Positions 2,262-41,068 of a DNA stretch of 64,000 nucleotides are shown one piece after another; position 1 is the stretch's first letter, and each line of letters begins with the position of its first letter. Made by a program: the position numbers and the translations under genes. The notes below the pieces were generated by a model. The model was not told where the DNA came from and searched no databases. It saw only the letters and a program-made list of their open reading frames with translations. The DNA comes from Eledone cirrhosa (taxonomy: Eukaryota): NCBI GenBank assembly GCA_964016885.1, contig OZ024744.1:92752001-92816000 (forward strand), in the 5' to 3' direction.

Positions 2262-2383
2262 GTATAATATCGAAATGCGCATAATAAAATACATGGAACT
2301 CTTTTAACCATCTTTTGATCTTATATATATATATATTGGCTGGTTAGAACAACTTCGATTGGCATCTGTGTAAACAACTATAT

Positions 2384-2465
2384 CTTCTCTGAGGATTCTA
2401 TGCCACAGCGGTAACAACTTACATAAGTTACTTGCTGTGGTGTAGGTGAAACATCATGTAAGAAG
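2384..2465 (+). ncRNA. Type I hammerhead ribozyme with long stem II
   Basis: CTTCT-CTGAGGA-[tctatgccacagc..gctgtggtgtagg]-GAAA-cat-c-atg-TA-AGAAG; GUA site. Confidence 0.8.
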
Positions 2466-2569
2466 TAAAATTTTGTTTTAAACGAACTGCAACTCCTCCA
2501 TTTATTTATTTTGTATATATATATATACATATATATATAAGATACATATATGAGTGTTGCTACCTTTCA

Positions 2570-5090
2570 CGGTGTGGCTCAATGAAAGAATTAATTAATC
2601 AAACAATTATTAATCAGAGTTATATATAAAATTCCAAGTTTGAAGAATTATTAGATAAAATATATCCAATCTTTCTTCACCCTATAGTCTGTAGAAATCA
2701 ACCACATAAATAATCATTTAAACGACACACATATTTAATAGACACACAATTAAGCTTTCTTATTCTACAACTATGAATATGGCCCAAAACATCACTAAAC
2801 TAAATAGTAGAATTCTAAACCTTCGACTTCTTTATCACAACTTATATGGTCATTAAAAGACAAAAATTTAAAATACTCGATTTTTTGGACGAAGCTTTGT
2901 AATAGTAGAATCTACTTGAACTCGTCTGTATCAACTATCTGCAACCTCTGTACTAAGGAGACCCTATTAATAATTACTAATTATGAAAACTTAATTAACA
3001 AAAAAAAAGTGAATTATTCTCAAACTGCCTTCATAAAGCTTTGTCTACATTCCAAGCCTCGCAAAAAGTCAGGAAAAAACACTAAACAAACAGGTTTTAA
3101 TTTTTGACGTCTCTTATCAACTGTTGTACCTAAAACGTTATAACAGTTTATAAAACTTTAATAATACTTTATTTTCTAATCATTTATGATAGAATTAATG
3201 TTAGAATGAAGGATCCTGTTTAGGTATATAAACATATTATTTGTTAACTTGTTCTCTTGATGAATATGCACACCTTTGGATTATTTTAGATATTTATCAT
3301 TTAAATTCGGATCCTTATATATATTTGTCTTTGTTTTAAATATATAATTTGGATATATAACTTGTAAGATTACCGGTTATAATTGAACCGTAAATCATTC
3401 ATGCATTTATATATTTTACTCATTTTGGGTATGTTTTGGGACTCAGAAAGTTAGATTTGCACATATATATGTTTTATATATATTTAGGTATAAATATAAC
3501 AAACCATACTAGTCGACAAATATTGGTCTCTCTTTCCACTGAACTGGAGGTAAAACTACAATTATAATATTACTAATAATGATTGTAATTATTTATTTAT
3601 TATATGTATATCGTTTCACTAATACCTATAATACTCTCTATATATATTTGAACAAATATGTTTATCTAGTATAATAACATGCTCGTAGTTACATTTATAA
3701 GTAATTTAGATACTCAAATGACTCTCTATTGTTATAAGGGTTAGATATTTCCTTAATGTTCGAAATTATATAATGATTATTACTTAATTTAATTTAATTT
3801 AATTTAATTTAATTTAATTAAATTTAGATTACCTCCGGGTCATTCAAATCCTTAGCTCCTCTTTCTATCACCTTCGTTTGACATTTTAGAAGTATCTTTT
3901 GTCTACTATATAATAAAACCCTCTTGCATTTTAAACTATATTTTTTAATATTGGCCATTTTTATGTTTCGCAAACAATTCATTATTTTTTCACTTTTTTT
4001 TTTTTATATCTAGTCCTTATCCTTAGAACTCATGAAGTTTTGTCTTATATATTTATAGTATATATCTATTAAATGATTCTTTACAATAATTGATCTAAAA
4101 CATTAATTTTTAACAATATTTTCAGTAACTTATTTACTATATTGTATTATGTTACGTATATTTGAAAGGTATCATCTTAAGTCTTTAGACAATATAATCT
4201 TTGTGCATTTTTTTTTGATAAACACATATATGTAATTTAAAATTCAGACCTTTTAAGTTTAATTATAAGGCCTGTTGATCCTTTAGGCACTCAAATTGTA
4301 AATCATAAATTCTTTAAAAATTATAACTGTAATTATTTTCTAAATTATATTATATAAGCTGTTGTCAATATTATATAATAAATTTGGTAAACCTTACCTT
4401 CGTAAGGTTGTTAAAACATTATGTTTTCTTTCTCGTGTTTGTAAATCCTTTAAATTTGATTTCATAAAATTTGATTTTAGAAATTAAATTTGATAGTATA
4501 CTTTAATATTAATACAGATACCTATTAACTTTTAAAACCTAAAATATTATTCATTACTCTGAACTAACTTAAATTAAATATTTTGAATATTAACGGTCAA
4601 CCAAATAAGTTTAGATATATATTGTATATATGGATAATTGTCTAAAGACTTGAACATAAGTTATTCCTCCTTATCTCTCTCTCTGTAATCAACTCTCTTT
4701 TGTTTTTCTAGGCCCCTACTAACTATATTATCTCCTCATCTGTTTCTTCCTCTATGCTTTTCTTTTCCTTCCTCTTTCTTCAGTAATTTAAATTATTTAA
4801 CTGTTATATTGATGCCAAGTATTTTTTAAGCCGTCTCACACGCACCCTCTCTATTGTATGTATTATATATTTTTCTCATGTTCTCAATATTAAGGTATAT
4901 AAATATTGAGTCTTGTCATATATTACTCACTACCATGACTGAATCTTAACCATCTACTATGTCAGGGTATGTCATGCATCATCTTATTTTATCTGATCAG
5001 GACGTACTGTTGAAGTTAACTCAGTACCTCTGAAATATGTATAATAAAATATACTTGATCACAAGAATATCTATTTTGTTAATATTTTGA
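2570..5090 (+). mobile_element. Degenerate PLE remnant (GIY-YIG C-terminus and long AT-rich 3' region)
   Basis: 2916-3107 encodes CNLCTKE..I....LIN, like CDLCAEE..I....LN at 13190-13378; ends with a decayed HHR. Confidence 0.5.
4986..5050 (+). ncRNA. Degenerate hammerhead ribozyme (G8 to C)
   Basis: ATTTTAT-CTGATCA-[gacgtactg/cagtacctc]-GAAA-tatgta-TA-ATAAAAT. Confidence 0.6.
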
Positions 5091-5100
5091 ATTAATATAT

Positions 5101-5845
5101 ATAAATCAATACTCACAAACCCGAACCAAGGCCTTTTGCCCATACGGGTTTGTGAGTATTGATTTATTATTTTTTAGATCGTACAGGCAAACTATATGTA
5201 TTTGAATTAAGATATTTCATTCTAACTATTTTATTAGTCAATTGCAACAAAAACATGTAAATGTTTATCATATATTAATTTATACTGCTCAGAAGCGATT
5301 CTTAGAGCTGAAATAATTGTAAATCAACCCATTGAGTGTAAACTCTAAGTTATATTATATTACTGCTCCCTCAGTCGAGCTGAATTTGTAATCCCATATA
5401 AACAGCTGTTATTTCTAGCACTATGTGTGGGAGGTTAGAGGACTGGAATAAGTCGTGTGCAAAACCTCGTGTATTTTCGCTACGTTAACCAGACCTTAGA
5501 TATTTTTCTGAGGTGAAGTTACTTAATTTATCTGGGTACCTATTGATGAATACAGAAAATTAATTAACTCACTACTAATTAATTAATTATTTCACTATTA
5601 TACCATCCTTTGTGAAACATATTTAAAGTTTGAAGTTCTGACCGATCTGCGGAAAAAGTTTGTATTTTGAAATTTAAACGTGTCTAGGTACCAAGGCCTT
5701 TTGCCCATACGGGTTTGTGAGTATTGATTTATTATTTTTTAGATCGTACAGGCAAACTATATGTATTTGAATTAAGATATTTCATTCTAACTATTTTATT
5801 AGTCAATTGCAACTAAAACATGTAAATGTTTATCATATATTAATA
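5101..5845 (+). mobile_element. Retrozyme-like non-coding repeat, family A (565-bp monomer, ~1.27 copies, 23-bp 5' inversion)
   Basis: 5125-5279 repeated at 5690-5844; 5101-5123 is the reverse complement of 5145-5167; contains an HHR. Confidence 0.8.
5535..5692 (+). ncRNA. Type I hammerhead ribozyme (U3 variant) with extended stems II and III
   Basis: GGTACCTA-TTGATGA...GAAA(5614)...GTC(5682-5684)-TAGGTACC; 8-bp perfect stem I. Confidence 0.8.
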
Positions 5846-5872
5846 TATATATACATATATATATATCATCAT

Positions 5873-10040: not shown

Positions 10041-10381
10041 GTATATATATAAATGTGTGAGAAAAACTACAAACCCTCCATCTCAATTCTACTTTTGAAA
10101 AGCAGAAGAACTGCGAAACCGGTAAAGGAACCAAATAAATATATATATATTTTTTTAAAAACTCCAGCTACATTTTCGATTTCATCTTTTTTCCTTATAT
10201 ATATATATATATATATAAATTAATATGTATGTGATGAAACACAGATACCAACACATCTGTATATATATTGCGAAAGAAAAATTTAGCCAGATTGAAGTAT
10301 ACTAATTATTATACTACAGTTTGTCCATATCGATTTAAAATAATAAATCAACGGAGACGAAGTGTATTGGCAAAAGGCCGT

Positions 10382-10509
10382 GATGTTTAGACACATTTAA
10401 ATTTCAAAATCAAACCTGTTCCGTAGATAAGTTTAGACTTTAAGATCCAAATATGTTTCGAGTTAAATAAGTGTAGGAATATCAAGTCCCCCTCTCCTCA
10501 GTAAACATC
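10382..10509 (-). ncRNA. Type I hammerhead ribozyme, family B (inverted arm)
   Basis: Reverse complement of 11192-11319. Confidence 0.85.
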
Positions 10510-11191
10510 CAGAGACAAATTGATATGCTTCACTTCTAAATAATTTAAAAGACTGCGTGGCGCACATGGCTTTACAGTATCTAACTAGTCTCATAACCGT
10601 ACTGCTAGAAATAACAGTCGTGTATATGAGGCGGCTTTGCAGCTCAAACTAGGAGCAGATTAAAATTAATAAGGTAATGAATTCTTTTACAATGGAAACA
10701 TATTTGGAAACATATTTGGAAACATATTTGGATCTTAAAGTCTAAACTTATCTACGGAACAGGTTTGATTTTGAAATTTAAATGTGTCTAAACATCACGG
10801 CCTTTTGCCAATACAGTTCGTCTCCGTTGATTTATTATTTTAAATCGATATGGACAAACTGTAGTATAATAATTAGTATACTTCAATCTGGCTAAATTTT
10901 TCTTTCGCAATATATATACAGATGTGTTGGTATCTGTGTTTCATCACATACATATTAATTTATACACTGCTCATGGGATATATATTTTCCTCATTCGAGC
11001 TGATTCCATTGTAAAAGAATTCATTACCTTATTAATTTTAATCTGCTCCTAGTTTGAGCTGCAAAGCCGCCTCATATACACGACTGTTATTTCTAGCAGT
11101 ACGGTTATGAGACTAGTTAGATACTGTAAAGCCATGTGCGCCACGCAGTCTTTTAAATTATTTAGAAGTGAAGCATATCAATTTGTCTCTG

Positions 11192-11319
11192 GATGTTTAC
11201 TGAGGAGAGGGGGACTTGATATTCCTACACTTATTTAACTCGAAACATATTTGGATCTTAAAGTCTAAACTTATCTACGGAACAGGTTTGATTTTGAAAT
11301 TTAAATGTGTCTAAACATC
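11192..11319 (+). ncRNA. Type I hammerhead ribozyme, family B, long stem III
   Basis: GATGTTTA-CTGAGGA-gag..ctc-GAAA-catatttgga..tttaaatgtg-TC-TAAACATC; GUC at 11309-11311. Confidence 0.88.
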
Positions 11320-11671
11320 ACGGCCTTTTGCCAATACACTTCGTCTCCGTTGATTTATTATTTTAAATCGATATGGACAAACTGTAGTATAATAATTAGT
11401 ATACTTCAATCTGGCTAAATTTTTCTTTCGCAATATATATACAGATGTGTTGGTATCTGTGTTTCATCACATACATATTAATTTATACACTGCTCATGGG
11501 ATATATTTTTTCCTCATTCGAGCTGATTCCATTGTAAAAGAATTCATTACCTTATTAATATATATATATATATGTATAAGTATTTCCTAAGAAAAAGCAA
11601 AGGAAAAAAGAGTGCTCTATATATAGAACAGAGCTATATAATTAGAAAGTGAACCACACAATATATAACTA

Positions 11672-11739
11672 CTGCATTACCAAAGGTTTCAGGATCCTAG
11701 ACAATATTATTATATGTCTGGATCGTTCATCAGACGTAG
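11672..11739 (-). ncRNA. Type I hammerhead ribozyme
   Basis: Minus strand: ctacgt-CTGATGA-[gatccagaca/tgtctaggatc]-GAAA-cc-ttt-gg-TA-atgcag. Confidence 0.8.
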
Positions 11740-11755
11740 AGGATATATATATATA

Positions 11756-11796
<41 letters not shown>

Positions 11797-11844
11797 GATA
11801 TTAAACAAATGGAAACTATATTTATATTTATAAAACCATATTTA

Positions 11845-11906
11845 TTTCGTTATATATATTTCTGGGATATCATATTAAAAATATGGTATACCTTCCTCAG
11901 ACAAAA
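11845..11906 (-). ncRNA. Type I hammerhead ribozyme in inverted pLTR
   Basis: Reverse complement of 14647-14708. Confidence 0.75.
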
Positions 11907-12388
11907 TACAATACATAAGCTGTTTTATAAATAATTATTGACATACCTTATAATAATGCGACTTCCATTTAAAAAGTTGATTTGGTAGTGAAACTGTTAT
12001 GACAGTTATATAGAAAGAAAAACGAAGATGAGAAGAAGAAGATGAAGAGATGTATGTAAATAAAAAAAGAAGAAGATGAAGAGATGTATGTAAAGAAAAA
12101 CAACAGAACGAGATAGAGAGACAAGGAGATATGGGAGAGAGAAATACATTGAGGAAGTGAAAAAATATAGTAGGCAGCTTTTGGACAGATGATCATCGTA
12201 TATGTGAGAGGTTAAGGAGGGAAGGGATACAGTTAAACTAGCCGACACATAAATCACGTCCAGTGTATAGGAGAAAAAGAAAGAAAGATGATATATTTAA
12301 AATATATTAAAAATATATTATGTCTCATCCATTTGAATTATCAATTTTTATGAATTAGGTATTATAATGTAAATATCAGTATTCGTGA

Positions 12389-13378
12389 ATGAGACACATA
12401 AATGAAAACTTGAATTATGTCAATTTTAGCTCCAATCACCCCAGATCTGTCAAAAATACTATAGTGAACTCTGTTCAAAAACGTATCTCTAGAATCTCTT
12501 CCAATAAAAATATTTTTGACGAAAAAGCCCAGTATTATAATGAAGCTTTAGCTAGAGCAGGATATAGTGATAAAATGATGTACATCGATAATAGACAAAC
12601 TAACCAAAATAACAACAATTTTAATTACAGTAACAACTTTAACAACTATAATAGAAAGCACTACGATAATTTCAAAAACCAGAAAAGAAATAGAACTAGA
12701 AATATAATATGGTTTGCCCCCCCTTTCTCACTAAACATTAAAACCCACATCGCTAAACTATTTTTTAATGCTCTTGACAAACGCTTCCCTAGAACACATA
12801 AGTATCACTCAATTTTCAATAGACATACTATAAAATTAACGTACTCGTCCACCAAAAATTTAGCACAAAATATTAATAGAATAAATAATAGGAATCTAAA
12901 ACCTAGCTAAAATACCGAAAATAGCCTAAACAATATTCAAGTAAAAAACTGTAACTGTAGAGATAGATCTAAATGTCCGCTAAATAACAATTGCTTAGTT
13001 AAAAATATAATATACAACTGTAATGTTAGAACTGATTTAAATTCTTTTAATTATGTTGGTTCCACCTCGACAGAATTTAAACTTTGCTATAATAATCACA
13101 AAAATTCTTTCACGGATCCAAATAAAAAATCTTCAACATCACTGTCAGGGTTACTCTGGCAACTTAAGCATGATAAAGTTGGATATTCGATGGTTTGGAA
13201 TATAGTCTCAAAAGGGATTCCTTTTAATTCCTCTTCTGAGACATGTGACCTCTGCGCGGAGGAGATATTCTTTATACTAAAATCTAAAAATTCCCTTAAT
13301 TTACGAACCAATTTATTCAGCTGCTGCAGACATAGATTGAACTCAACTTTTAAATATAAATATAAATTTAAAATGTAG
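12389..13378 (+). pseudogene. PLE thumb + GIY-YIG endonuclease remnant (disrupted)
   Basis: SNHPRSV..RISRISS..ALARAGY, RNIIWFAPPFS, CNCR...CPL..NCL..NIIY..YVGST, CDLCAEE..CRHR. Confidence 0.85.
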
Positions 13379-14646
13379 TATAAAATGTAGTATATTTACT
13401 TAAGATATTTAACTATTTATGAAACTTGGTGATAAATCTTTCGATTCCTTCAATTTTTTTAAAAACCTTTCTGCATGAATATATAATTAATGAGATTAAA
13501 TAAACTACCCTAAAATTGGCGTTGTTCCCAATCTTTTGAATAAATTTTTAAGCTGGATAAACTTCTATAATAAATATAAGAGCATTTGTAGAATAAGTTT
13601 TGAATGATTTCTGCTAAATAAGGCTTGGTGAACAATTTTGGTTTTGTTTGCTTTTGATTCTGATTTTATGTGACCGATATGCGTGGCATACTATGTTCTC
13701 TTGCGTCCTTAGATACTCTGTGGAGTGACGAAGATATTCTTGGCGTTTTTAATTTTTAATATTGATATCTGTTGTCTACTCTATGCTTGATCGATAATCA
13801 TGCAAGTGAGGCTGGAATGTTATTTTATATATTTTATGTCTATATATATGTATTTATGTATGTAAATGTATGTAGGGTGGAATCTTTTGTAACGCAATGA
13901 AGTTTTTCATGAAATATAAGAATCTGTGCAGCATATCACGTAGGTTCACATGTGTGTCTATATTTATCAACTTGAGTTTGAGATAACCTTCTCTTTTCTC
14001 TTTTTCTTTTTTCACGAGAATGCATATATACTTATGTTTGAAGTTTTATCTCAGATTTTGCTTATAGACCTAAGAATTTTTAAACTGAGCATGTGGTCAT
14101 TTTTTCACACATTATGGATATGTGTCTCATTCATGAATACTGATATTTACATTATAATACCTAATTCGTAAAAATTGATAATTCAAATGGATGAGACATA
14201 ATATATTTTTAATATATTTTAAATATATCATCTTTCTTTCTTTTTCTCCTATACACTGGACGTGATTTATGTGTCGGCTAGTTTAACTGTATCCCTTCCC
14301 TCCTTAACCTCTCACATATACGATGATCATCTGTCCAAAAGCTGCCTACTATATTTTTTCACTTCCTCAATGTATTTCTCTCTCCCATATCTCCTTGTCT
14401 CTCTATCTCGCTCTGTTGTTTTTCTTTACATACATCTCTTCATCTTCTTCTTTTTTTCTTTACATACATCTCTTCATCTTCTTCTTTTTTTATTTACATA
14501 CATCTCTTCATCTTCTTCTTCTCATCTTCGTTTTTCTTTCTATATAACTGTCATAACAGTTTCACTACCAAATCAACTTTTTAAATGGAAGTCGCATTAT
14601 TATAAGGTATGTCAATAATTATTTATAAAACAGCTTATGTATTGTA

Positions 14647-14708
14647 TTTTGTCTGAGGAAGGTATACCATATTTTTAATATGATATCCCAGAAATATATA
14701 TAACGAAA
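14647..14708 (+). ncRNA. Type I hammerhead ribozyme in pLTR
   Basis: TTTTGT-CTGAGGA-[catatt/aatatg stem]-GAAA-tatata-TA-ACGAAA; palindromic stem III. Confidence 0.75.
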
Positions 14709-14844
14709 TAAATATGGTTTTATAAATATAAATATAGTTTCCATTTGTTTAATATCGTAAACCTACTCCAGAAACTGTTGAGTGCTTTTATATCAGTTAT
14801 AAAATATTTACTCGTTGTAACCCAACAATCTTAAATAAAACTTT

Positions 14845-14895
<51 letters not shown>

Positions 14896-16011: not shown

Positions 16012-16058
16012 ATATCTATATATACAAAATTAATTTAATTAAATTAAATTAAGGGAGT

Positions 16059-18021
16059 TATAGCGGATTTTACTGGCGGTGTATGAATGTAACAAAGAGA
16101 CATCGTTTGTGTGTATAATATTTAATCAACAATCATGGATATATATATAGAACAGTATAGTTGACATGTCAAAGAAATAGATGAAAGAATGAAGCAAAGT
16201 AATGAGTTACCATTTTGGTTGCCAGGCAAACGCGGCTGGCAAAAGACGCCTGGCAAAGGCCAGGCGCCGGAAGGGCAAATGAGAGAGTGAGAACTTAAAG
16301 TTGTTAGTTTTATAGGGTTCTGACCGGAAGTTACAGAAAGGGTTCTACTTCCTGTCTAGATGGTGTTGTGAGTGTCACAACAAGGGAGGCAACTGCTACA
16401 TAACCTCCCGCCAGAATTTTAGAATATAAAAATCGAATGAAATATGTAGCAAGTTGGCGAGAATATTGTAACAGGCATGAAAATTACGACAAAAGAATGT
16501 TTGCAAAAATCAATGATAGATATCAAGGTCAGAGAACGACTGGACATCTATCTATCCATCACCCAAAGATACAATGTAATAAAGTAAGAGAAGAGCTCCA
16601 AGTTCAAATGTACAAAATATAGTTCACAGGTGTGCAATCACATGACAGCAGGAAAGAAAGTGTGTTCCAGAGAAGGAATGCAGGTGGTTTCTGTTCTGTG
16701 GTATATCGTGAAATTTCCAACCTCCGAATGGATTTTCTCACAGGAAGAGTGCTGCAAAAATAAATTCTCTGGCTTGTTCTGCTGGTTTTGGTTGTTGATG
16801 AAGCTGTGTTGCTGTTGATGTTGTTTTCTCGCGGAGTGAGTGTATTCGGTGTTTAAATTCACAGTAAAAAAAATTTTCAGAAAAAATGAGTTGCGCAGTG
16901 TTAGAAATAACAGCCGAAGTTGATGGTCGATGTTGAGAATGCGTTGACCTGGAAGGGTCAAGAGGCCAGCGACCAAAGAAATAAGCATTCTGAATAAATG
17001 CGCAGTTTTCAACGGCAAATTTACGTGGTAAATTTTTAAACCGGCAAATAGGAGAATATAGCTTAAGGCTGAAGAATCCTTGGCGAGAAACGTTATCTCT
17101 GGCGTGCGGCTATCTCTGTGAGTCGAGGTATCTCCGTGAGTTGAGAATTTGTGCTGCCTACACGTGCCAATATAAGGTTAAGTTAGGTTGAAAAATTAAT
17201 ATTTCTAACGCGCGAGAAAATGATAGTGCAAGTTTGAAAGTGACAATGATGAAAAAGAAAGGCTTCACTCAGCATAATTATTGGTGTGAACTTTGAAAAA
17301 AAACTTGAACGATGAAGAAAACGATGAAAAAAAAAAAAAAAATGGTTCATCGAAAATAAATGTTCCTGTTGAAATGTTTAAAAAAAAAAAAATATCAAAT
17401 TTCTTTTTTTTTTTTTTTTTTGAAAGTGTTCGTTGTAGGAAACGAGAATATATCGTGAAATGCGACAGTTAGTTGATGCGTGAGAGAAAAAGTCTGTCTG
17501 AACGCGAATTTCACATGTGCGTGTGTGCGTTTCTTTGACTGAGTATTTTCATAGTTTGTCAATAAATTTGCTATGTATTCGTAATGTTACTCACATAACA
17601 CCAGATTCTGCTATTTTTTTTTCGGGGTGACCACTTATAACAATGAAGGGCTGCGTGTTCGTATCACGTCAGGGTTACCAATATAGCTGATTTTACTGGC
17701 GGTGTATGAATGTAACAAAGAGACATCGTTTGTGTGTATAATATTTAATCAACAATCATGGATATATATAGAACAGTATAGTTGACATGTCAAAGAAATA
17801 GATGAAAGAATGAAGCAAAGTAATGAGTTACCGTTTTGGTTGCCAGGCAAACGCGGCTGGCAGAAGACGCCTGCCAAAGGCCAGGCGCCGGAAGAGCAAA
17901 TGAGAGAGTGAGAACTTAAAGTTGTTAGTTTTATAGGGTTCTGACCGGAAGTTACAGAAAGGGTTCTACTTCCTGTCTAGATGGTGTTGTGAGTGTCACA
18001 ACAAGGGAGGGAACTGCTACA
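16059..18021 (-). mobile_element. Non-autonomous LTR element (LTRs 17682-18021 and 16059-16400), 4-bp TSD GAGT
   Basis: Two ~340-bp near-identical direct repeats with TGTAGC...GCTATA ends, tRNA-Trp PBS, purine-rich tract before the 3' LTR, no gag/pol motifs seen. Confidence 0.9.
17645..17680 (-). promoter_or_regulatory. Extended primer-binding site complementary to the tRNA-Trp 3' end
   Basis: Plus strand gaagggctgcgtgttcgtatcacgtcagggttaCCA resembles the metazoan tRNA-Trp 3' half plus CCA, 1 nt from the LTR. Confidence 0.82.
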
Positions 18022-18079
18022 GAGTCATGTCCGAGACATGCACCATTTAATTTAATTTAATTAATTTTGGATATATACA

Positions 18080-18653
<574 letters not shown>

Positions 18654-19034: not shown

Positions 19035-20742
19035 CGGTGGGGGCCAGTATAAAACTAACCCTTAAGGAACATAGGTGCAAATTTAATTGAAAAACATATG
19101 CCCAAGAGGAGGGAGCAGCCATTGGTGTTAGCATTGCAGGTGACATAGCTAACCTATTCATGGTATGGTGGGACAATAAACTTAACTTAAAGAACAATTA
19201 GAAGACAGCAACCTCTTAACCCTGATAATGTACTCCTGCTACGTTGATGATATAAACATCGTAGTAAAACCACCCCACTAGAGAACAGTCAGGAATTAGA
19301 GAAAAACACCATGGAAAGCATCCAGCAAATAGCTAACTCCGTCCACCAGAGTATCAGAGTTACTATAGACTACCCAAGCAAACACCCAAACCATCGATTA
19401 CCTGTACTAGACACAGAGCTCTGGTTAGAAACCATTAATAACAAAAACCAAAACCTCCATTCCCATTATGTCAAATCCATGACTTCCAAATATCTGATCC
19501 ACCGAAACTCAGCTGTTTCGGATCACACCACAATCAATATACTAATTGCGGATTTGGTACGGGTGATGAAAAACGTGTCCCGCATGTGCAACCCCAAAGA
19601 ACTAGAGAGACACATACAACACTTCATCCACCGTATGCAGTTCCCTGGTTACAATCAGAGAGATAAGCTCAGAGTATATAGAGGAGCCAGAACCAAATGG
19701 GAAAAAATGGTAAATAATGATACAAATGGGACCTGCCCCTTGTATAGGAGCAAATTTTGGAATAGAATAGAAAGAACTAGGAATAAGGTTAATAGAATAA
19801 ACTCATGGGATGATAGCAATAAATACCAGAGTGTAATTTTCATCGATACAACCCCTAGAGGTGAACTAGCTTACAAATTTAGAAGGGCCCTAGATAAACT
19901 TAAACTAAATATTAAGATAGTGGAAAGACCAGGTACCTCCATAAAAACACTTATTAGTAATACATACCCTTTTCAAAGACCTCCCTGTATAGATAAGAAA
20001 TACATAATCTGTAAACTAAGTCCCCATATTAACTGTAAAACTAGAAATGTAGTATATAGCATAAGATGTACTGAGGGACAATGTAAAGATAAGAATATAA
20101 TGTACATAGGTGAGACAGCTCGTAGTATAGGAGAACGATTAAATGAACACTGGCGAGAGCTTCAAGATAGAAAAGACTCATCAGTAATCCACCAACATGC
20201 TAAAATAGAACATAAGGGCAAATTAGGGAACATAGAAATAAAATAAAATCTACACACAGAAAAGACGCAATGTTTAGACAAATCACAGAGGCAATAAACA
20301 TAAATGAACACCAACCAAATTAAATAGAAAACATGAATGGAATAGCAACATCACAACTTACAATTAAGGACAAAATGAAAACACACACACATAGAACAAA
20401 CAACCAACTAGTAACATGTAAATAAACAAATAAATAAACAAATAAAAACACAATACGGACACCCGGATGTAACACATGCGCAAACTAAGCACACAACACA
20501 CACAAAAACAAGATGGCGTAGAACAGAACAAAGGAGAGGCACAAAATAAAGAAAAGAATCCCCGGTCACTGATGAGGTCACAGAATGTGTGACGAAAGAA
20601 CTTTGACAATATATGAACAACTGTCCGGTTGTGGAACCAACCAACTGGAAATTTATAAAAAAAAATTTTTTAATTTTTAATTTAATTTATAATAAATTGG
20701 AGTGAAAGTAACTGGTGCGTGTGTTTCTCCCAAAGTATAACA

Positions 20743-21150: not shown

Positions 21151-21650
21151 GTATATATATATATGTATGTATACGTACATACATAAATGTATACAGACGT
21201 TCAGTAGTATGTATATATATACATACATGCACACATATATATGCACGTATCGGTTTACCGAACATTTATTATAATGCTAGGTTTGTTTGTTTGTAAACAA
21301 ACAAACAGCCTGAATTACGCCGTACAGTGTTTAGGCAACCACGTCACCTTTTTGTTCAACACTGACACAGGAACGATGTACTAGTTTCAAGCTTATTAGC
21401 TATCGTCAGCATCGTATACCTTCCTGCCAGATGGTTGAACGTCTGAACAAACCGAGCATGATAATAAATGTTCGGTAAACCGATACGTGCATATATATAT
21501 ATGTGTGCATGTATGTATATATATACATACTACTGTACGTCTGTATACATATATGTGTGTACGTATACATACATGCATATTTACATTTAAGTAAGTGCCG
21601 TACTAAGAGTGAGAAATGAAATTTCGTTTCATTCTATTCCATTTATATAT
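21145..21650 (-). mobile_element. HHR-bearing pLTR-like repeat with an inverted duplicated tail; homolog at 40790-41280 (+)
   Basis: 21160-21290 inverted against 21447-21575; shared sequence with 40790-41280. Confidence 0.7.
21373..21415 (-). ncRNA. Minimal type I hammerhead ribozyme
   Basis: Minus strand: ACGATG-CTGACGA-t-agct-aata-agct-t-GAAA-ctag-TA-CATCGT. Confidence 0.88.
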
Positions 21651-32451: not shown

Positions 32452-32979
32452 CTTTAATAAGTCTTTCCTTTCATCTTTTTGCCGCTCTGCTTTACCCTCC
32501 CATCACATATATATATGATGGGAATAGATATTTAACTTTTCATTGAAATGTCTGATTATATTAGAGAGAAATAACTTTCTGATTAATATTGGCTACACCT
32601 TTATTGTTGAGTAAATTCAGACAGGTTTTTAGGTGTTATTTCTAGCCTCATTAACAGCCTGTCATATTATCATAATATAAAGAGAGATATTTGTTCATTT
32701 AGTAGTTCAATGACACAACTTGTTGGTCATGCCATGCTGTTTCAACAATGACATGGTCTGTATACTATCTATTCAATATTTTCTCTACTTCCAAAGGATT
32801 TCCACCTGCAGACAGAATAATTTTACCAGAATTAATTGTCTTAATTTATTAAGATAATTAGTATAATTGTTTATTCCAGAAACTGCAGTTAGGGACATTA
32901 CATGAGTGAAATTGACTTATTTTCATTTGACTAATTTATATCCATCCAAATCAAGATTTTGGCTTAAGTTATATATATA

Positions 32980-39034: not shown

Positions 39035-40610
<1,576 letters not shown>

Positions 40611-41026: not shown

Positions 41027-41068
41027 ACAATGCTGACGATAGCTAATAAGCTGAAACTAGTACATCGT
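41027..41068 (+). ncRNA. Minimal type I hammerhead ribozyme
   Basis: acaatg-CTGACGA-t-agct-aata-agct-GAAA-ctag-TA-catcgt. Confidence 0.82.

Follow-up and report, generated by a model that had tools for sequence, protein, structure and literature searches.

A twin bulged hairpin marks the insertion ends of Hydra-type Penelope-like elements and non-coding hammerhead repeats in Eledone cirrhosa and is likely an RNA signal for internal priming

The window analysed here, a stretch of 64,000 nucleotides from the 3.0-Gb animal assembly of Eledone cirrhosa, holds members of three repeat families, A (~565 bases per unit), B (523 bases) and C (~520 bases), which are dispersed, young and non-coding, together with pieces of Penelope-like elements (PLEs) (Table 1). 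Copies of all three families occur as partial tandems and fold-backs, and in each family a type I hammerhead shares its strand with the hairpin motifs described below. In A and B, stem I of the hammerhead has 8 pairs and stem III is long; the C hammerhead is atypical, with an insert before GAAA. Family A uses the U3-A8 core variant UUGAUAA (the variant is described in PMC4209133), and its window copy reads UUGAUGA. A, B and C have the make-up of non-LTR retrozymes: their tandem units are non-coding, low in GC and equipped with a type I hammerhead. An earlier, sequence-only reading of this DNA had named A, B and C as families; A and B turned out not to be independent of each other but homologous subfamilies, alongside many further homologous subfamilies, with C more distant. 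Family C proper spans 18045-18510, and 16050-18021 is a different, unrelated 1.6-kb element that splits the C insertion.

Table 1. Mapped features of families A, B and C, of the Hydra-type elements and of motif 3 in the window
Feature	Positions	Strand	Remarks
Family A insertion, direct arm	5128..5849	+	1.3 units of ~565 bases; ends at site 1 in (TA)n
Family A hairpin 1	5285..5310	+	GCUC/GAGC stem, UA bulge, AGAA/UUCU upper stem; end site 1 ~2 bases 5' of GCTC
Family A hairpin 2	5363..5382	+	end site 2 ~4 bases 5' of GCTC
Family A motif 3	5408..5419	+	GYTATTTHTAGC, resembling a palindrome; probable DNA promoter site
Family A type I hammerhead	5535..5692	+	stem III long; sequence and fold predict cleavage after GUC at 5684
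Family B inverted arm	10214..10700	-	ends at site 1 in (TA)n; hairpin 2 10658-10640, motif 3 10615-10604
Family B direct arm	10719..11560	+	1.6 units of 523 bases; ends at site 2 in (TA)n
Family B hairpin 1	10967..11002	+	second copy 11490-11525
Family B hairpin 2	11043..11061	+	
Family B motif 3	11086..11097	+	
Family B type I hammerhead	11192..11319	+	core CUGAGGA at 11200 and a long stem III; cleavage predicted after GUC at 11311
Stub of a further Hydra-type pLTR, inverted	11576..11735	-	hammerhead core 11733-11686, hairpin 1 11634-11614; ends in (TA)n, end assigned by eye
Autonomous-type Hydra element, inverted arm	11794..12400	-	ends at site 1
5'-truncated Hydra-clade PLE	12389..14848	+	RT-thumb/GIY-YIG ORF pieces 12389-13378, hammerhead core 14653; ends at site 2 in (TA)n
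Autonomous-family hairpin 1	14765..14783	+	compensatory ACUC/GAGU form
Family C inverted arm	16017..16049	-	ends at site 2; continues at 18022-18044, split by the 1.6-kb element
Motif 3 variant (TAAC) in the unrelated 1.6-kb element	16900..16911	-	
Family C direct arm	18045..18512	+	ends at site 1; hairpin 2 18080-18101, motif 3 18124-18135, atypical hammerhead ~18261-18358
Isolated motif 3 core	32635..32646	+	no GCT 5' flank, hairpin or hammerhead alongside

Several further features lie in the same DNA. Right after hammerhead stem I is a small GGC-N4-GCC hairpin (5131-5141, 5691-5701, 10800-10810 and related loci), present in most A/B-type subfamilies at what would be the 5' end of the cleaved RNA. 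The 1.6-kb element at 16050-18021 is a partial tandem with one fixed end, 4,445 first-look candidates and varied non-TA flanks; it has no ORF, carries motif 3 on the minus strand and lacks a GCUC hairpin beyond its end. A different PLE clade (YSRYVDD, C-terminal GIY-YIG) is represented by fragments, each with its own hammerhead core, at 238-2176, 19251-20700 and 39149-40370, and a degenerate GIY-YIG fragment at 2342-3107, with a hammerhead core at 2389-2452 and (TA)n beside it, is probably a Hydra-type remnant. Very short hammerhead-core-like matches were seen in a SINE-like repeat (21384-21409 and 41033-41057), and a 21-kb array of a 14-base satellite in ~1,500 copies fills 42920-64000.

The coding partner among these elements is the Hydra-type PLE. 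Its autonomous unit is 3.7 kb long, and intact relatives encode a single 741-aa ORF in which a YRDD reverse transcriptase (RT) is followed by a C-terminal YNCNV..YVG block, so that RT and GIY-YIG endonuclease are combined in one protein. Pfam gave no match to the 741-aa Hydra family, and the endonuclease label comes from motifs read directly. The protein contains SDKT (DKT), CNCRDRSKC (CxCX5C), CDLC (CxxC) and CRH (CxH) and has no CCHH, and section 11 of PMC8557442 defines the Hydra clade by DKT, CxCX5C, CxxC, CxH and the lack of CCHH. The partner element thus fits the Hydra clade by motif set, not by tree. It also has a hammerhead in its pLTR and an insertion into (TA)n. An N-terminal RWR is found in the 741-aa family, and RWK in most metagenome relatives (read from DNA by eye). 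Penelope-like elements are the sister group of telomerase, and a structure model of the 741-aa protein (mean pLDDT 88.8) had TERT as its best match. Among 150 copies of the autonomous family scored, dozens have open frames of 740-760 codons, at 88-100% identity; open frames and identity together suggest recent activity of the family.

The sequence-only reading had pointed to a GCUC/GAGC hairpin with a U.U mismatch, occurring twice per monomer, and to a tetraloop hairpin after it (here motif 3). The coordinates of both check out, and both motifs occur far above shuffled expectation. The string CTGCTC-N-GAGCTG has six matches in the window against 0.02 expected from 100 shuffles: 5285-5310, 5363-5382, 10967-11002 and 11043-11061, with extra copies at 11490-11525 and, on the minus strand, 10658-10640. 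A variant in family C lies at 18080-18101. Genome-wide, the cassette of hairpin and motif 3 has 2,964 matches and the reversed control none. The hairpin consists of a 4-pair stem, a 3' U-H bulge and then one more base pair, and is doubled per unit in hammerhead repeats A, B and C. Within the window the doubling holds for A and B; the C copy has hairpin 2 only, and hairpin 1 is found in other C copies. The U.U mismatch, by comparison, proved incidental and is ruled out as a defining feature by flank counts: the flank is G.U in 10 and U.U in 6 of 16 distinct retrozyme cassettes, and the 3' flank in autonomous relatives is mostly ACU (40/49). Of 16 distinct hairpin-2 copies among the retrozymes of this genome, 13 have C-G as the pair across the 2-base bulge.

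Isolated hairpins fold weakly (-3.9 to -9.0 kcal/mol). Minus-strand folds are about equally stable, so folding energy fixes neither the strand nor whether the hairpin acts as RNA or DNA, and the RNA assignment that we infer draws on indirect grounds. A search of the window with Rfam 15 returned only one tRNA and no match for either motif; in a search of six loci at E<=5 nothing reached the gathering score, and one weak chance match (E 4) lay over an L246 hairpin.

We looked for the hairpin in relatives of the autonomous element. A profile scan of metagenome contigs gave 78 loci, of which 33, those with a true ORF start, were kept for the hairpin count; the 45 dropped comprised 39 without an ORF start and 6 permuted or broken-contig artefacts (L235, L236, L244, L245, L276 and L284). 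No relatives came up when metagenome contigs were scanned with a single protein, or viral contigs with a profile. Within 170 bases upstream of the ORF, the hairpin descriptor found at least one hairpin in 29 of the 33 elements and at least two in 19. Of the controls, the reverse strand gave 6 and 0, the ORF interior 3 and 0, and shuffles 1.9 and 0.12. Four of the 33 elements had no descriptor hairpin within that distance. A search of the upstream regions of autonomous PLEs, which had been suggested earlier, thus recovered the hairpin in 29 metagenome elements as well as in the Hydra family of this genome.

The metagenome hairpins also show how the structure varies; covariation was scored as pair counts obtained by anchoring in scripts. 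The pair across the bulge, which the descriptor does not demand, was Watson-Crick in 48 of 49 descriptor matches (C-G 38, U-A 9, G-C 1). The bulge itself was UU in 37, UC in 10 and UA in 2, and two of the 49 matches look spurious. Two-sided changes of the stem gave UCUC/GAGA, GUUC/GAAC, ACUC/GAGU and GCCC/GGGC. Fourteen metagenome contigs had an internal second terminal-repeat end, which lay 0-8 bases before a hairpin in 12 (tallied by eye), 4 bases inside the hairpin in one and at the hammerhead in the other; several of the targets at these ends are not (TA)n. By eye, the same hairpins can be seen at the start or in the tail of published Hydra consensuses from sea cucumber and coral, given in the PMC8557442 supplement.

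In autonomous elements the hairpins sit between the hammerhead and the ORF start, and hairpin 2 stands 14-40 bases before the ATG. In the autonomous family of this genome, hairpin 2 (GCUC/GAGC) is ~25 bases before the ATG and was seen in tandem copies. The pattern GAGC-ATG-SLKNIP marks 1,447 starts in the genome, against 2 for the control, and these belong to several families; the strict hairpin descriptor fires in 11 of 30 such loci. Families L323, L329 and L344 have a hairpin 2 loop of 60-100 bases or an unpaired outer pair, with GAGC still 14-40 bases before the ATG.

Motif 3 had been described as a tetraloop hairpin acting in cis as RNA. It is present in the window at 5408, 11086, 18124, 32635 and, on the minus strand, 10615, and none of 100 shuffles contained GYTATTTHTAGC. 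The isolated copy at ~32635-32646 is there as a core only, without the GCT 5' flank. In retrozymes motif 3 follows hairpin 2 at a distance of 24-28 bases, the place expected for an ATG; after it come conserved CACGTG-like and CAGTC-like blocks, which we take to be E-box-like and initiator-like, and then the hammerhead. It was absent from all 30 autonomous Hydra loci examined. Its 15-base form, GCTGYTATTTHTAGC, has 14,236 copies in the genome (control 5); 8 of the first 30 loci have a hairpin arm upstream, and the 22 without one include the 1.6-kb element, SINE-like repeats and one two-orientation element (L300). Motif 3 is thus an element separate from the hairpin, absent from autonomous loci and found in unrelated repeats, and a role as a DNA transcription element is the likelier one.

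We lean towards the view that motif 3 is a DNA promoter element of its own, driving transcription of the unit. An RNA hairpin of 5-9 pairs with a UUUH loop, bound by a host or element protein, is possible but less probable. Its three outer pairs are indeed paired in 14, 11 and 15 of the 16 distinct cassettes, mostly through one-sided changes compatible with G.U, but two-sided covariation is almost nil, and the TAAC form, which would keep a U-A pair, is rare (58 matches, C and T alike). Fold stability favours the sense over the antisense strand; on the other hand, in the 1.6-kb element the motif runs opposite to the inferred sense, and in L300 it stands in both orientations. The 22 non-cassette loci keep the 5' flank, and just 10 of them form pair 2 and 9 form pair 3. 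The conserved blocks downstream, presumably E-box-like and initiator-like, also speak against an RNA hairpin. A DNA reading has a candidate likeness in the MEF2 site, for which PMC7470950 gives the consensus YTAW4TAR. As a match of sequence, this consensus is exact in 5 of 16 distinct cassettes and has one mismatch in 11. CTATTTATAG (family C) and the TTTT variants fit it, as does the variable Y, whereas the commonest motif 3 has a conserved GCTG 5' flank and, at position 7, a C that breaks the W4 core (11/16), a point that favours RNA. Two other likenesses were rejected. As an snRNA proximal sequence element, motif 3 was looked for in the 500 bases ahead of 20 U2 and 15 U6 loci and had no match at <=3 mismatches. 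The histone stem-loop has a similar UUUH loop; its stem differs, and there was no Rfam match.

In order to place the hairpins relative to the insertion ends, we fetched 30 loci per family and mapped distinct 3' junctions into (TA)n. Ends lay between -2 and 15 bases 5' of a hairpin in 35 of 37 cases for A, 35 of 40 for B, 36 of 39 for C and 43 of 44 for the autonomous family; a uniform spread would give ~2.4 such ends in A and ~2.8 in B. The usual apparent offset is ~4 bases 5' of the hairpin, blurred by TA microhomology. Eleven further A ends that were not into (TA)n were mostly scattered, and 45 C ends classed as not into TA were left unused, 27 of them being artefacts of a rearranged query start. 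It is the sense-strand 5' side that carries the variable, truncated ends; the fixed ends lie directly against the target. The one-sided "tail", formed by the sequence between the two end sites, measures 72-113 bases here.

The two sites are used in a fixed combination. In head-to-head insertions, one arm ended at site 1 and the other at site 2 in 45 of 45 cases (A 10, B 9, C 15, autonomous 11), and the B, C and Hydra insertions of the window obey the same rule. The count covers distinct insertions with both outer ends placed, from 120 partly overlapping loci; the 11 autonomous insertions had been preselected for a site-2 end, and the 34 from A, B and C had not. Independent arms would give the 1+2 combination in at most 50%.

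We consider it likely that the hairpin is an RNA signal that positions a Hydra RT for internal target-primed initiation, and that this signal is common to the PLEs and to A, B and C. RT recognition was among the roles first suggested for the GCUC/GAGC hairpin, and it is supported both by the position of the hairpin 0-8 bases 3' of the fixed ends and by its covariation in autonomous Hydra-type elements; of ligation, another of those roles, we found no sign. In the mechanism we propose, the Hydra RT-endonuclease would bind the hairpins on the sense RNA, and both strands of (TA)n would be cut. On a single RNA, each of the two DNA ends would prime ~4 bases 5' of its own hairpin, one at hairpin 1 and the other at hairpin 2; that the outcome is strictly 1+2 points to two priming events on one RNA. 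Two RT copies may act at once, or priming may occur in turn, with the first hybrid hiding site 1. The two cDNAs would run back through the hammerhead junction of an uncleaved multimer or a circle and would join head to head, and the product would show an inversion, a partial tandem and, on one arm, a tail equal to the stretch between the start sites. Families A, B and C would travel as passengers: having retained the hammerhead and both hairpins, they would be copied in trans. Since a blastn comparison with 30 Hydra 5' regions found no autonomous parent of A, B or C, the argument for mobilisation in trans is built on the shared motif, ends and target. More tentatively, we suggest double-ended TPRT, in which two RT-endonuclease copies sit on one RNA and each primes one break end at its own hairpin. 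If true, this would account for both the inverted repeats of PLEs and the one-sided tail.

The same ends could arise if the hairpin were read as DNA and the GIY-YIG endonuclease cut a long cDNA or donor a few bases 5' of it, so that the ends would be resolution cuts and not RT starts; we regard this as unlikely. The core pairs are nearly all Watson-Crick, so that a DNA hairpin would form too, but in B, C and L124 the upper stem of hairpin 1 has G.U pairs that form on the sense strand. Section 15 of PMC8557442 ascribes the tail to endonuclease-mediated resolution, and PMC11167929, in the portion concerned with D. virilis, has the tail as required for endonuclease recognition; in the Anolis portion of that paper, however, genomic ends match in vitro RT starts. 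Resolution cuts also give no reason for the strict 1+2 pairing.

It is improbable that TA microhomology alone sets the ends, with the role of the hairpin lying elsewhere, in control of ORF translation, RNA stability or packaging. Every end site in this genome does have 2-6 bases of TA-like sequence, and in autonomous elements the position of hairpin 2 shortly before the ATG would suit a role in translation. However, longer TA runs within the units are passed over: the perfect 9-base AT run of B takes 0 of 40 ends, the better TA decoys of the autonomous unit take 0 of 44, and a longer TA run in C, 28 bases upstream of hairpin 1, takes 1 of 39. Because these better decoys are ignored, end placement goes beyond TA microhomology alone. 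In addition, the offsets persist at non-TA targets in metagenome contigs, and both hairpins are kept in the non-coding A, B and C units, which have no ORF. Least probable of all is an antisense RNA template on which the hairpins are stop signals (a template boundary) ending cDNA synthesis: PMC3846280 takes head-to-head palindromes and intron retention as arguments for antisense templates, minus-strand folds are equally stable and some outer pairs (ACTC with GAGC) form on the antisense strand only, but the hammerheads are on the sense strand, truncated ends at the sense 5' side with fixed ends at the target are the prediction of TPRT on sense RNA, and the template in the in vitro work reported in PMC11167929 is sense RNA.

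The proposed sense-strand RNA signal for internal initiation can be set beside several known systems. The Hydra-clade PLEs treated in PMC8557442 have, in the sections concerned, the same pLTR hammerhead, (TA)n targets, tandem and inverted insertions and one-sided tail; their tails are 30-40 bases long, against 72-113 here, and here each end site has its own hairpin. The main text of PMC8557442 nowhere uses "hairpin" or "stem-loop" and ascribes the tail to endonuclease cleavage. In Anolis Poseidon (PAc), the pertinent passages of PMC11167929 report that genomic ends equal in vitro RT starts on sense RNA, that both target strands are cut and extended, and that RNA 3' of the starts is required. 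PAc resembles the elements described here in that two internal RT starts downstream of the hammerhead define the tail and targets are AT-rich (PMC11167929, same passages). It differs in that its starts lie inside an AC-rich stem-loop within the ORF, with no repeated signal described in those passages, and in that they report no start-site difference between strands, whereas here the arms always use different sites and a doubled motif lies 3' of the starts. By eye, the twin-hairpin motif was not seen in the Anolis template fragment, so the in vitro precedent comes from another clade.

For the passengers, the closest systems are the metazoan non-LTR retrozymes, which in parts of PMC7229834 and 10.64898/2026.07.22.740005 are likewise non-coding, low-GC tandems with type I hammerheads, proposed to be moved by PLEs; those parts name neither the cis signal nor the PLE clade. 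The units described here are 520-565 bases long and have a long, monomer-type stem III and the Hydra twin hairpin. More widely, the 3' stem-loops of LINEs and SINEs, the epsilon element of hepatitis B and the template boundary of telomerase are small structured RNAs that recruit or position an RT, and passengers copy such signals. The signal proposed here differs from these in lying 3' of the copied region, so that it would stay uncopied unless the next unit supplies it, and in being doubled and used once per DNA end.

In the literature covered, which stops short of most subscription papers, figures and some supplements, the twin hairpin and the pairing rule were not found described. On comparative grounds, which support it strongly, the twin hairpin is a real and apparently undescribed signal inside known classes of element. 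Two questions are left open by the work with which it can be compared: how PLEs choose internal starts and build inverted, one-side-tailed insertions (open in the relevant sections of PMC8557442 and PMC11167929), and how animal retrozymes are mobilised, which 10.64898/2026.07.22.740005 states, in the part concerned, to be unresolved. With a ~20-base motif, precisely placed starts, an intact 741-aa enzyme and passenger RNAs found in nature, both questions become testable in a single in vitro system. For retrotransposon-based gene insertion, an RNA tag that is short and transferable and steers reverse transcription to (TA)n would be of interest. If the proposed mechanism is true, the two hairpins would form a portable tag that any RNA could acquire and by which it would be written into (TA)n DNA.
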